From an uncultured Atopobium sp. (lineage in GTDB: Bacteria; Actinomycetota; Coriobacteriia; Coriobacteriales; Atopobiaceae): 24,000 nt of DNA. Both the position numbers and the translations under genes were made by a program. Under the pieces are notes generated by a model, which made no database searches, was not told the DNA's origin, and saw only the letters and a program-made list of their open reading frames with translations. Positions 18,403 through 23,857 of the stretch are shown in pieces. Location of the stretch: assembly GCA_963525825.1 (NCBI GenBank), contig CAURLG010000005.1, positions 1 to 24,000 on the forward strand, written 5' to 3'. Positions within the stretch are counted from its first letter, which is position 1, and every line of letters begins with the position of its first letter.

Positions 18403-19110
18403 ATGACGCAAACATTGTCTGCACCTGCTGTTTTGTCAGCTTGCAAGCTTGATCGACGCACCGCCAGAACTCGCGCGGCGCTTAGAAAAGCCCTGGCAGA
18501 AGAGATAGACGCAACCGGCGACCTTACCTCCGTGACCGTCACGGGCGTAACGGAGCGCGCTGGCCTCACGCGTCGAACCTTTTATTCCCACTACAAAGAC
18601 ATCCCTGACCTGGTGCTTCACATCGAAAAGGAAGCGCTGGCGGAGCTGCGACCTGCTGTTGAACAGCTTGCTCGCGTCAACCTTGTTGAGCTCAGAGAGG
18701 CCATTGACTCCTACAAGCCGTGCCCCGGCGCAACGGAGATGCTTCGCAGCATTCGTAAACACGGTTTCTACCTGCGTCCTTTGCTGGGCAACGGTGGAGA
18801 TCCTGCGTTCCAGGATAAGCTAAAGCACCTGGTACACGAGGTTATCGCCCAGCGCGCCCTGCACGACCTTGATCCGCGCGCACTTGGTCCCTTCTTTGAC
18901 TACTATCTGACCTTCGCAATTTCTGCCGAGGTCGGCGTCCTTATCCGCTGGTTAATCGGCGGCATGCGCGAGAGCGACGAGCAGATGGCAGGCCTTATGA
19001 CCGGCCTCATGTTTGTTGCACCTGGCGATCTGTACGGCAAGCCAATCAAGCTAGACGTTCCACGATTTGCGCTTGCAACTCTTGTTCTCGGAGAGGAAAA
19101 TAATGATTAG
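18403..19110 (+). CDS. TetR/AcrR-family transcriptional regulator
   Basis: I prefer ATG18403, because the upstream 34 codons from 18301 are Cys/Pro/Ala-rich and look non-coding. The HTH is VTVTGVTERAGLTRRTFYSHYKDIPDLV. The stop overlaps the start of the downstream giant gene by 8 nt. Confidence 0.85.
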   Translation: MTQTLSAPAVLSACKLDRRTARTRAALRKALAEEIDATGDLTSVTVTGVTERAGLTRRTFYSHYKDIPDLVLHIEKEALAELRPAVEQLARVNLVELREAIDSYKPCPGATEMLRSIRKHGFYLRPLLGNGGDPAFQDKLKHLVHEVIAQRALHDLDPRALGPFFDYYLTFAISAEVGVLIRWLIGGMRESDEQMAGLMTGLMFVAPGDLYGKPIKLDVPRFALATLVLGEENND

Positions 19111-22100: not shown

Positions 22101-23857
22101 AGGTTGACCAGGTCTCCAACTTGGGTGCTGCGCGTATTCGTATCCGCTCCCTGATGGCTGCTTTAAACGAGCAGCAGGCAGAGCTCGAGCGACTTTCAGC
22201 TGCCGGCCTGGTTACCGAGGCCGTTCCACAGGGCGTTCGCATGGCCGATGGCTCTCTGGAAAAGGCCAGAAGCGCTAGTTCTTCTCGCCGTGCGCCCGTG
22301 TACCGCGAGGCAGAATCCGCAGCTTACGAGAAGGTCCGCTACACCAAAGAGATGCAGGAAGCGGGCTACACCATACTGGCTCCACAGATGGCGCCGATCC
22401 ACTTTGAGCTGGTAGAGGAGCTGCTGAAGGGTGCGGGCTACAATGTTGTGCTGCTGCCTTCGGTTGACCAGGGTGCCGTTGACATGGGCCTTCGCTACGT
22501 CAATAACGACATCTGCTACCCATCTATCCTGGTCACGGGCCAGATTATGGAGGCAGTGCTTTCGGGCAAGTATGATCTGACCAAGACCGCGGTTCTGATT
22601 TCGCAGACCGGCGGTGGCTGCCGTGCAACCAACTACATTGCACTGATTCGTAAGGCGCTTAAAGACGCAGGTCACCCAGAGATTCCGGTCATTTCCGTCT
22701 CCGCCGCTTCCGGTCTTGACGAGGACAACCCAGGATTCAAGCTGTTCAAGCCTGACTTGCTCATCAAGGCAGTTTACGCGCTCCTGTACGGCGACCTGAT
22801 CATGCAGCTGCTGTATCGCGTTCGTCCCTACGAGGCCGTCAAGGGTTCCGCAAATGAGCTGTATGACCAGCTCATGGCTGATACACGCTCCAAGATCAAC
22901 GGAATTTCTCGCAAGGAATTCTACAAGCAGTGCCAGCGTACCATCGAACTGTTTGACAGCCTGCCCGTGGTCAATGACCGCCAGAAGCCACGCGTCGGAG
23001 TTGTTGGCGAGATTCTGGTTAAGTTCCACCCAACGGCCAACAATGAGCTGGTCAAGGTCATCGAGTCCGAGGGCTGCGAGGCTAACGTTCCGGGTCTGGT
23101 CGACTTCTTCCTGTTTGGCCTCTCCAACGCGATCAACACGCACAAGGAGCTGGGTACCTCGTTTAAGAGCCGCATGACGCACATCGCGGGCATCAAGATG
23201 GTCCAGGGCCTGCGCGCGCCAATCAATAAGATGCTGGAGAAGTCCGAGCGCTTTGAGCCATATCCCAACATCGATGAGCTGGCCGAGAAGGCTGGTCAGA
23301 TTCTCTCGCTCTGCAACACGATGGGCGAGGGTTGGCTGCTCACCGCTGAGATGTGCGACCTCATTGAGACGGGCACGCCAAACATCGTCTGCGCTCAGCC
23401 ATTTGCATGCCTACCTAACCACGTCGTTGGTAAGGCGGTCATCAAGCGCCTGCGCCAGATGCACCCCGAGTCTAACATTGTTGCTGTCGACTACGACCCA
23501 GGCGCGTCCGAGGTCAACCAGCTCAACCGTATCAAGCTGATGATTTCGGTGGCTAAGGAGAACTACAAGAACGGCGTAAATGGCGAGTTCAAGCTAGAAA
23601 ACGCCGACGATCCAGTCACTAACGACGCAACTATGCCGTATACCGGCCGCGACAAGTTTGGCCTGGATTCCGTTGTCCGCGAGGGCGGCCACTCTTGCTC
23701 TTCGCACCACATGTCTGCGCTGGAAGCAACCGGCGCTAACCTGGGCGATCACGGTCGCACCGCTCCTGACCACGGAAAAGATTACGGTTCCATTAGGCTT
23801 TCCGAGGAGCAGATGGCTGCTATCGAGCGCGCCAAGAAAAAGGCTGGCGTCAAGTAG
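19103..23857 (+). CDS. Fused ATP-dependent Fe-S radical/reductase system: 2 x BcrAD/BadFG (HgdC-like) activator ATPase domains, a 4-Cys linker, and 2 x HgdA/HgdB-like (DUF2229/HGD-D) modules
   Basis: ATG19103 has GGAGAGG 6 nt upstream. ATPase domain 1 (~19187-19942) has [19 protein letters not shown] and [10 protein letters not shown]. ATPase domain 2 (~20129-20902) has [21 protein letters not shown] and SRCTVFMNS. The 4-Cys motif spans 20987-21067. Module A (~21179-22171) has [31 protein letters not shown] and FGCGLDA. Module B (~22319-23566) has [20 protein letters not shown] and PFACLPNHV. Confidence 0.9.
   Translation: [1584 protein letters not shown]

Follow-up and report, generated by a model that had tools for sequence, protein, structure and literature searches.

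What does the 1584-residue protein encoded close to the end of this DNA do? The window (the whole 24,000-nucleotide stretch that was analysed) carries one long reading frame that joins two ATPase domains to two catalytic modules. A preliminary description had read it as an electron-injecting enzyme of unknown substrate, in a family without established function. On substrate and family, this view has to be abandoned: the family is PlsA/PlsR, and its orthologues have a documented function. We consider it highly probable that the frame, which comes from an uncultured member of the Atopobiaceae, codes for an anaerobic plasmalogen synthase in which PlsA and PlsR are fused in one chain, and that a TetR regulator is co-transcribed with it and probably controls it. 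The present analysis supports this reading by homology that is collinear from end to end, by conservation of the cysteine ligands, by the fold of the catalytic modules and by the synteny with TetR.

PlsA/PlsR was described as an anaerobic plasmalogen synthase by Jackson et al. 2021, as cited in PMC9702350, PMC10191378 and PMC12838417. For the Clostridium perfringens enzyme, the function has been established by genetics and heterologous expression. Judged by homology, the 1584-aa protein is an ordinary ortholog in an already known system, the function of PlsA/PlsR having been published since 2021. That function looked unknown because public databases keep other names; homologs are entered as ‘CoA activase’, ‘2-hydroxyacyl-CoA dehydratase’ or ‘acyl-CoA dehydratase activase-related protein’.

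Collinearity with PlsA and PlsR of C. perfringens

The frame lies on the + strand, ends at 23857 and can start at TTG 19067 or ATG 19103. GAGAGGAAAATA stands before ATG 19103, and the ENA gene call uses this ATG, giving 1584 aa. Residues are counted here from ATG 19103; the preliminary description counted from TTG 19067, so its residue numbers are higher by 12. The gene layout it gave is correct, the synthase frame (19103-23857) overlapping the end of the TetR gene (18403-19110) by 8 nt (19103-19110). The domains follow one another in the order ATPase 1, ATPase 2, Cys4 motif, DUF2229 module and PlsR-equivalent module:

19103..23857, + strand: predicted plasmalogen synthase of the fused PlsA-PlsR type; 1584 aa and a stop codon
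19181..20002, + strand: activator ATPase domain 1, residues 27-300; BcrAD_BadFG at E 6e-23; cluster cysteines C148 and C187
20129..20914, + strand: activator ATPase domain 2, residues 343-604; BcrAD_BadFG at residues 345-599; C468 and C507 (plus C472)
20975..21082, + strand: Cys4 motif C629-x2-C632-x3-C636-x18-C655, residues 625-660; from conservation and the AF2 model
21170..22174, + strand: catalytic module 1 (Red1; DUF2229), residues 690-1024; invariant C747, C789 and C975
22175..22339, + strand: variable linker, residues 1025-1079; the site where C. perfringens plsA and plsR split into two genes
22340..23557, + strand: catalytic module 2 (Red2; PlsR-equivalent), residues 1080-1485; C1138, C1173 and C1436
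23558..23854, + strand: C-terminal tail, residues 1486-1584; clade-specific, with two conserved islands

For comparison, the C. perfringens plsA-plsR locus was recovered via a published cloning primer. The recovered span is 4199 bp, the same length that PMC12838417 quotes for the fragment that Jackson et al. cloned. By BLASTP, residues 27-1024 of the window protein align with PlsA residues 2-975 (46% identity, 906 bits), and residues 1080-1485 with residues 12-412 of the 420 in PlsR (44% identity, 331 bits, E 8e-106). By this collinear identity of 46% and 44%, the protein is a PlsA-linker-PlsR fusion with a tail of ∼100 aa. The domain order is identical to that of PlsA (CPE1194, Q8XL48) and PlsR (CPE1195, Q8XL47) described by Jackson et al. 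2021, the Pfam pattern is the same, and all cysteine motifs are kept. These comprise 15 cysteines that are retained in at least 46 of 50 diverse homologs with identities of 30-89%: four (plus one) in the activator, the Cys4 motif, and three in each catalytic module.

The two systems differ in their packaging. C. perfringens carries plsA and plsR as two genes, 8 nt apart (11 nt with the plsA stop codon), and no TetR gene adjoins them, whereas the window has one frame with a TetR gene upstream. Its protein also carries a 26-aa N-terminal extension, a variable linker of ∼55 aa and the clade-specific tail. The islands of the tail read F(R/K)LEN..DPVT.DA..PYTG and, at the terminus, I.L..EQ...IE.AK.KAGVK; in the alignment of 50 homologs the tail is absent from those of Firmicutes and Parascardovia.

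Activator and catalytic parts

Pfam BcrAD_BadFG matches the protein twice (E 7e-53), and the two ATPase domains align with each other in hhalign at E 1e-44. Domain 2 matches HadI (4EHT, E 5e-27) and HgdC (1HUX), its C468 and C507 (the latter in SRCTVF) aligning with C127 and C166 of HgdC, which we take to be the cluster ligands of Locher 2001. Domain 1 finds its best PDB match in DCCP-R (7YYL_E), and C148, within NGTCAGGTG, and C187, within SRCGVF, align with C115 and C152 of that protein, which are documented cluster ligands (PMC9351452). These four cysteines are present in 49-50 of the 50 homologs. The activators of the HAD, BCR and DCCP systems (HgdC/HadI, BzdPQ, the activator part of MbdONPQ and DCCP-R) are likewise pairs of ASKHA ATPases with two cysteines per subunit for a bridging [4Fe-4S] cluster. 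The tandem ATPase domains with paired cluster cysteines that the preliminary description had reported are thus confirmed by the double Pfam match and by the alignments to the DCCP-R and HgdC ligands.

Between the second ATPase domain and DUF2229 sits the Cys4 motif, which does not figure in the earlier motif list. Each of its cysteines is present in 48-49 of the 50 diverse homologs, and the motif occurs in C. perfringens PlsA as well. In the AF2 model this segment is a small, beta-rich element of three beta-strands, with block-mean pLDDT of 71-82. The motif may be a metal site for Zn or an Fe-S cluster; compared with the HAD/BCR/DCCP systems, it is an extra.

Red1 matches DUF2229 at E 2e-81 to 2e-86 and lines up collinearly with C. 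perfringens PlsA in the C-terminal part of the latter; its C747 (SACYP), C789 and C975 (FGCGLD) occur in 50/50 homologs. Red2, with C1138 (DICYP), C1173 and C1436 (PFACLPNH), is matched weakly by Pfam (DUF2229 at E 1e-4, HGD-D at E 2e-3). Profile-profile alignment by hhalign joins Red1 and Red2 with a probability of 97.1% (E 6e-11, 313 columns), and the three cysteines of one module align pairwise with those of the other. By this alignment the modules are paralogs, as had been proposed, and each of the matching Cys motifs is found where it had been placed once the numbers are shifted by 12. The spacing is C-x41-C-x185-C in Red1 and C-x34-C-x262-C in Red2. The cysteine of Red1 that partners C1173 of Red2, C789 (YNCPIV), had been missed.

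Catalytic pairs of two paralogous alpha/beta subunits are known from HgdAB/HadBC, BcrBC, BzdNO, MbdON and DCCP. In each module the three-cysteine pattern is similar to that of BzdO at its aqua-[4Fe-4S] site, where three cysteines (C95/C128/C380) plus water hold the cluster (PMC11971306). The AF2 model of the catalytic part (pLDDT 91.3, pTM 0.89) loses confidence in part of the linker (model residues ∼440-460, block means 79 and 75) and is low-confidence in the first residues of the tail, the portion that was modelled. In a Foldseek search of the PDB, the top 13 matches are all HadB/HadC, DCCP, BzdN/O or MbdO/N at probability 1.0, and later matches are noise. This similarity is at the level of the fold, with target-normalised TM-scores of 0.39-0.50 and identities of 10-13%. 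As modelled, the catalytic part shares the HAD/BCR/DCCP superfamily fold, the outcome expected in the preliminary description. Together with the HMM domains, these fold matches bear out its view of an archerase-type activator, pseudo-dimeric and joined in cis to a core that is a pseudo-heterodimer; the parts that are separate proteins in HAD, BCR and DCCP systems are all four in one polypeptide here.

Substrate and product

The family names and the match of NCBIfam TIGR00241 to the ATPase domains would suit a 2-hydroxyacyl-CoA dehydratase, or another radical enzyme of CoA thioesters, with a fused activase. This reading is disfavoured, and we regard it as extremely improbable. Pfam HGD-D reaches 18 bits against a cut-off of 28.4, so the profiles expected earlier were found in the case of BcrAD_BadFG (twice) and DUF2229 and fell short in that of HGD-D. 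Neither phmmer nor a PDB sequence profile search found a sequence-level match to the catalytic chains of HAD, BCR or DCCP, the profile search returning activators only. No CoA-transferase, ligase or acyl-CoA dehydrogenase was found among the upstream genes or downstream in the parent scaffold. Instead, a nucleoside-catabolism cluster lies upstream, and a GH32 glycosidase and an M20 peptidase lie downstream in the parent scaffold; the earlier remark that no CoA-transferase or ligase is adjacent was accurate. Finally, the orthologs act on glycerolipids (PMC9702350, PMC12838417). The suggestion that the substrate may not be a CoA thioester was sound, and in contrast to HAD and BCR the window protein is proposed to act on an ester of a membrane glycerolipid.

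The preliminary description favoured an ATP-driven reductase or dehydratase whose substrate would be small and not a lipid, for instance an unsaturated or hydroxy acid or, as for DCCP, an acetylene-type compound. The catalytic fold is common to HAD, BCR and DCCP, the last of which has no known physiological substrate, and no pathway genes adjoin the locus. The same lack of pathway neighbours is, however, expected if an enzyme works on membrane lipids that are already complete. The collinear identity with both subunits of a functionally established enzyme also argues against a small substrate, as does the behaviour of fused orthologs: E. coli forms plasmalogens when given the single gene of Enterococcus faecalis, Lactococcus cremoris or Bifidobacterium longum subsp. 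suis; the gene alone suffices there, a result obtained with these homologs (PMC12838417). We therefore hold a small substrate to be very improbable.

Plasmalogen synthesis is in keeping with what the closer relatives make. The fused PlsA proteins of E. faecalis (EF1327, Q835P9), L. cremoris, B. longum subsp. suis and Collinsella aerofaciens share the four domains Act1-Act2-Red1-Red2 with the window protein. The single-ORF homolog of C. aerofaciens ATCC 25986 is 69% identical over 1526 aa, and we assume it to be the same gene as GXM19_05965, a one-ORF, four-domain synthase noted in that species (PMC10080676). Glycosyl plasmalogens with solved structures have been described from C. aerofaciens and Eggerthella lenta (PMC10080676; PMC12291448), and the fatty-acid profiles of Eggerthellaceae are rich in dimethyl acetals, which come from plasmalogens (PMC12494484).

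The closest competitor is a glycerol ester reductase of the Ger type, in which the reduction is carried further or differently to yield saturated 1-O-alkyl ethers. Ger, a related form that makes alkyl ethers, is a PlsA homolog known from Thermotoga maritima (Tmari_0479) and Desulfatibacillum alkenivorans (SHJ90043) (PMC13159169). Like the window protein it is fused and contains BcrAD_BadFG twice as well as DUF2229, and its C-terminal region resembles PlsR. By its description, it targets the sn-1 ester of glycerolipids and is active only without oxygen, as is proposed for the window protein; its product is a saturated alkyl ether, unlike the vinyl ether of PlsA (PMC13159169). The two activities are at present not separable by primary sequence, and one hypothesis ties two activation domains, which the window protein has, to Ger-like activity (PMC13274423). 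This criterion does not discriminate, since BcrAD_BadFG is likewise present twice in the validated PlsA of C. perfringens. In a midpoint-rooted neighbour-joining tree of 52 sequences, computed without bootstrap and without a validated Ger or E. faecalis marker, the window protein falls in one clade with C. perfringens PlsAR, other Coriobacteriales, Parascardovia and three metagenome-derived fused representatives (P0122, P0123 and P0125) at 44-54% identity; lineages outside this unbootstrapped clade show 30-42%. This placement and the documented vinyl ether or dimethyl acetal production by C. aerofaciens, E. lenta and Eggerthellaceae generally make Ger-type activity improbable.

As a plasmalogen synthase, the window protein is predicted from its homology to convert a diacyl glycerolipid to a 1-alk-1'-enyl lipid. 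We infer the cluster types and geometry, the electron donor and the lipid head group, along with the TetR regulation treated below. The tandem ASKHA ATPase domains would pair within the chain as a pseudo-dimer, with C148/C187 and C468/C507 as ligands of a single bridging [4Fe-4S] cluster. This cluster would be reduced by a ferredoxin or flavodoxin of the cell, and ATP hydrolysis would push a very-low-potential electron into the core of two paralogous HAD/BCR/DCCP-fold modules. In each module the three conserved cysteines (747/789/975 in Red1, 1138/1173/1436 in Red2) should, on the model of BzdO, bind a [4Fe-4S] cluster that leaves one iron site open. There a completed diacyl glycerolipid would undergo two-electron reduction of its sn-1 acyl ester and then dehydration to a vinyl ether lipid, made without oxygen; candidate substrates are phospholipids and, for Coriobacteriia, glycosyl diacylglycerols. 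HAD recycles one electron, whereas plasmalogen synthesis takes up two electrons net and includes a dehydration; we infer two ATP-coupled electrons per turnover, BCR-like, in place of the catalytic single electron of HAD.

The TetR gene and its upstream region

Three features precede the synthase frame:

17925..17956, + strand: terminator-like hairpin plus T-run, from a consensus scan only; 3′ of the pyrimidine-nucleoside phosphorylase gene
18254..18295, + strand: palindrome TTATTGCACAGAGTGTGTA / TACTCAGTATGTGCAATAA, ∼110 nt upstream of the TetR start
18403..19110, + strand: TetR-family regulator, 235 aa; Pfam TetR_C_8

The regulator matches TetR_C_8 at 42.6 bits (cut-off 26.1). Its TetR_N helix-turn-helix scores 17.9 bits, under the cut-off of 24, and that of the Olsenella ortholog 28.9. 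In a neighbourhood survey, as had been suggested, a TetR homolog stands directly upstream on the same strand in 72/72 Coriobacteriales loci. At the Olsenella sp. An285 locus, all neighbours differ except TetR. In E. faecalis, too, pls is preceded directly upstream by a TetR/AcrR gene (PMC9702350); the Parascardovia homolog, the nearest one compared from Bifidobacteriaceae (∼50% identical), has no upstream TetR. TetR probably controls the synthase gene.

The glycosyl plasmalogens of C. aerofaciens, like those of E. lenta, are acid- and oxidant-triggered and are TLR2 agonists. A speculative and on balance unlikely extension is that the Coriobacteriales TetR-pls pair is a ligand-controlled switch, responding to a lipid, aldehyde or redox signal, for TLR2-agonist glycosyl plasmalogens, and that the tail and Cys4 motif might adapt the enzyme to glycolipids or to its electron donor. 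If true, this would place regulation in obligate anaerobes, where one review says that a regulator is absent.

The terminator-like hairpin is predicted to separate the TetR-pls unit from the nucleoside operon. The palindrome is a candidate promoter (extended -10-like), TetR operator or both; in other genera, the corresponding position again shows a (G)TGTGCAATA(A/C)TAC-like motif.

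Relation of the window protein to PlsA and PlsR

[quoted passage not shown] The accessible parts of PMC9702350, PMC10191378 and PMC12838417 place this enzyme in the BCR/HAD family, divide it into 'activation' and 'reduction/dehydration' domains, and describe all four domains on one gene in many bacteria. E. coli produces plasmalogens when given either the C. perfringens operon or the fused gene of E. faecalis, L. cremoris or B. longum subsp. suis (PMC12838417). It is the literature on DUF2229 that points to these bacterial ether-lipid enzymes. The two window genes concerned are:

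18403-19110, + strand: TetR-family gene, 235 aa
19103-23857, + strand: pls ORF, 1584 aa counted from the ATG

The 4.75 kb pls ORF opens with a TTG at 19067 and ends at 23857. Its likely start is ATG 19103, with GAGAGGAAAATA just before it, and ENA's annotation of the parent scaffold starts the gene at the identical position. The Pfam matches are BcrAD_BadFG ATPase domains, two in number, and a strong one to DUF2229 (E 2e-86), to which NCBIfam adds an acyl-CoA dehydratase activase domain; the C-terminal 580 residues give sub-threshold Pfam matches alone (DUF2229, E 1e-4; HGD-D, E 2e-3). In ATPase domain 1, Pfam also matches DEDD_Tnp_IS110, FGGY_N and ROK weakly and below threshold; the ASKHA fold accounts for these cross-matches, which mark no transposase or kinase domain. 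Rfam and tRNA scans across the whole window returned no match.

To place C. perfringens PlsA/PlsR beside this protein, the cloning primer in Table S6 of PMC12838417 was used; it matches 11 metagenome contigs exactly. In one of them (L007), the distance from the plsA TTG start at 6694 to the plsR stop at 10892 is 4199 bp, exactly the length of the fragment that Jackson et al. cloned, according to PMC12838417. The E. faecalis plsA primer ATGGTTATGAGAGCAGGGAT had no match among the genome contigs searched, and the B. longum primers appear codon-optimised. Residues 27-1024 of the window protein align with PlsA residues 2-975 at 46% identity (906 bits) without large gaps, and residues 1080-1485 align with residues 12-412 of the 420 in PlsR at 44% identity (E 8e-106). 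All cysteine motifs of the window protein are kept in the C. perfringens proteins, whose Pfam pattern equals that of the matching parts. Because the alignments run end to end, the cysteine motifs are conserved and the Pfam pattern is the same, the window ORF is, by sequence, a collinear PlsA-linker-PlsR fusion. It differs from the two C. perfringens proteins in adding a 26-aa N-terminal extension, a variable linker of ~55 aa and a C-terminal tail of ~100 aa.

The window has a match in an ENA metagenome scaffold and shares 99% identity with MAGs labelled 'uncultured Atopobium sp.'. Tractidigestivibacter, Parafannyhessea and Atopobium fossor have orthologs of the window protein at 77-81% identity, and C. 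aerofaciens ATCC 25986 has one at 69% identity across 1526 aa. The glycosyl plasmalogens of C. aerofaciens and E. lenta have been solved by NMR (PMC10080676, PMC12291448), C. aerofaciens is reported to carry the four domains in a single ORF (PMC10080676), and dimethyl acetals are major components of Eggerthellaceae fatty-acid profiles (PMC12494484).

The window protein is best read, from its homology, as the ortholog of a known system in an uncultured gut actinobacterium. The preliminary description had called its substrate and function unknown; this is out of date, since the function of orthologs is documented, a finding that the description itself had named as counting against its reading. 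The description was right to propose a substrate other than a CoA thioester. The enzyme family, the lipid substrate, the fused form in Coriobacteriaceae and the TetR neighbour are all already published. Discovery value is small, and the practical value lies in correcting database names: 'CoA activase' and '2-hydroxyacyl-CoA dehydratase', still in use, give a lipid enzyme of known function the appearance of an orphan.

Conserved cysteines, fold and proposed mechanism

A search with residues 610-1500 against 1.84 billion cluster representatives (E <= 1e-3) returned 6755 homologs, among them fused (1400-1600 aa) and split (roughly 990 plus 420 aa) forms. When 50 diverse fused homologs, at 30-89% identity, are aligned, 15 cysteines prove invariant or nearly so.

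Conserved cysteines and C-terminal tail of the window protein in the 50-homolog alignment
Cysteines 148, 187, 468, 472, 507: activator cysteines, ATPase domains 1 and 2 (Act1, Act2)
Cysteines 629, 632, 636, 655: Cys4 motif, between ATPase 2 and DUF2229
Cysteines 747, 789, 975: first catalytic module (Red1)
Cysteines 1138, 1173, 1436: second catalytic module (Red2)
Residues 1486-1584 (window 23558-23854): C-terminal tail

The cysteine motifs listed in the preliminary description all lie at its positions after subtraction of 12, its numbering being TTG-based. Its structural description, with two ATPase domains and two paralogous cysteine-bearing modules, is likewise correct. By profile-profile comparison, Act1 and Act2 are paralogs (E 1e-44), as are Red1 and Red2 (313 columns, probability 97.1%, E 6e-11), whose cysteines pair as 747-1138, 789-1173 and 975-1436. 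Window residues C468/C507 align with HgdC C127/C166, and C148/C187 with DCCP-R C115/C152, documented ligands of a bridging [4Fe-4S] cluster (PMC9351452).

The likeness of Red1 and Red2 to the catalytic subunits of the HAD/BCR/DCCP superfamily was visible in a structure model and invisible to sequence methods: a profile search of PDB sequences matched activator ATPases and no catalytic chains. An AlphaFold2 model of residues 610-1500 based on a 52-sequence alignment is confident (pLDDT 91.3, pTM 0.89), against a pLDDT of 36 from the single sequence. Its best 13 Foldseek PDB matches are all catalytic subunits (HadBC, DCCP, BzdNO, MbdON; probability 1.0), and later ones are noise. The three cysteines in each module resemble in spacing the aqua-[4Fe-4S] site of BzdO, C95/C128/C380 (PMC11971306).

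The explanation with most support has four steps. Act1 and Act2 would form an intramolecular archerase-type pseudo-dimer around one bridging [4Fe-4S] cluster, which host ferredoxin or flavodoxin would reduce. ATP hydrolysis would then drive low-potential electrons into the Red1/Red2 pseudo-heterodimer, where a diacyl glycerolipid would have its sn-1 acyl ester reduced by two electrons and dehydrated to a vinyl ether, the proposed route as summarised in PMC8788747. In E. coli a single homologous gene suffices, which shows that no dedicated partner is needed (PMC12838417). We infer which clusters are present, what Cys4 does, that ATP is used stoichiometrically as in BCR, which head group the lipid has and that TetR exerts control. 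To our knowledge, PlsA has never been characterised in vitro.

The main rival reading is that the window protein is of the Ger type (glycerol ester reductase) and makes alkyl ethers. Ger is a related 'modified PlsA' whose products are saturated alkyl ethers (PMC13159169), and sequence alone is compatible with either type (PMC13274423). A rough neighbour-joining tree puts the window protein in one clade with other Coriobacteriales, Parascardovia, three fused, metagenome-derived representatives (P0122, P0123, P0125) and C. perfringens PlsAR. The distant cluster representatives looked up bore no Thermotogae or Desulfobacterota names that would mark a Ger clade.

The Cys4 motif, C-x2-C-x3-C-x18-C (residues 625-660; window 20975-21082), is present in 48-49 of the 50 homologs and in C. 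perfringens PlsA, and no description of it was found in the accessible literature. It separates the activator from the catalytic core, went unremarked in the preliminary description, and may be a site for Zn or for one more Fe-S relay cluster. The C-terminal tail is specific to Atopobiaceae and Coriobacteriaceae, homologs from Firmicutes and Parascardovia being without it, and shows two islands of conservation, with a terminal segment, also conserved, that closes in ..AK(K/R)KAGVK. Two full-length fused homologs (P0194, 1622 aa; P0170, 1415 aa; ~37-39% identical) are assigned by annotation to two eukaryotes that live anaerobically, Pelomyxa schiedti and Barthelona sp. PCE; these could reflect lateral transfer of a bacterial ether-lipid enzyme into anaerobic protists or assembly contamination.

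The TetR gene and its upstream region

The TetR-family gene and the pls ORF share 8 nt (18403-19110 against ATG 19103), as first described. A TetR homolog (45-99% identity) lies directly upstream on the same strand at all 72 of the 72 Coriobacteriales loci with enough upstream sequence, and the other neighbours of pls vary from locus to locus. No TetR gene is present at the C. perfringens, Parascardovia and P0125 loci. For E. faecalis, Goldfine's review had pointed out a TetR/AcrR gene upstream of pls and stated that this regulator is absent from strict anaerobes (PMC9702350); the TetR-family linkage in the obligately anaerobic Coriobacteriales sampled may qualify that statement. Regulation of plasmalogen production is of some interest because the plasmalogens of gut Coriobacteriia are immunologically active.

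Upstream lie a nucleoside operon and then a terminator-like hairpin. A palindrome at 18254-18295 holds a motif that is found again upstream of tetR in other genera. A ~24-28-nt unit, ACAGATTCTTTG(A/C)AG(A/T)A(A/T)T(C/T)AGGC, is present in four copies in the intergenic region upstream of tetR (18056-18181), three of them direct at a spacing of 30-31 nt and one inverted. The rest of the window lacks this unit (0 copies expected by chance); it is kept in the 99%-identical MAGs (L015, L021) and absent from other genera. At 17847-17921, just 3′ of the pyrimidine-nucleoside phosphorylase stop and just 5′ of the terminator-like hairpin, a 35-nt direct repeat (..GCTCCACATAACATGCAGGT..) is present in two copies, 86% identical and 40 nt apart.

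Other genes

3158-4660, - strand: YjjI-like glycyl radical enzyme (Pfam E 5e-212)
2194-3138, - strand: radical-SAM activase of the YjjI-like enzyme

In the region 2194-4660 (- strand) and 1301-1942 (+ strand), the YjjI-like enzyme and its activase adjoin deoC and a deoB/PNP/nucleoside-transporter/cdd/pdp cluster, and in E. coli K-12 yjjW-yjjI likewise lies directly beside deoCABD. This deo linkage across phyla suggests a role for the orphan YjjI-like enzyme in (deoxy)nucleoside or deoxyribose catabolism. In the Parascardovia locus (L096), a 260-aa ORF at 8848-9627 lacks any Pfam match, shares 4 nt with the 3′ end of pls and may be a lineage-specific partner. A PfkB-family kinase with an N-terminal winged-helix DNA-binding domain (window 7290-8372, - strand) adjoins the pseudouridine glycosidase gene psuG (6308-7234) and may be a fused kinase-regulator. 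Finally, the cytidine deaminase at 15710-16273 ends in an unusual Gly/His/Cys-rich C-terminal tail (..GEHGAGGHEHSCGCGCGEHGGGNQ) that looks like a metal-binding sequence.
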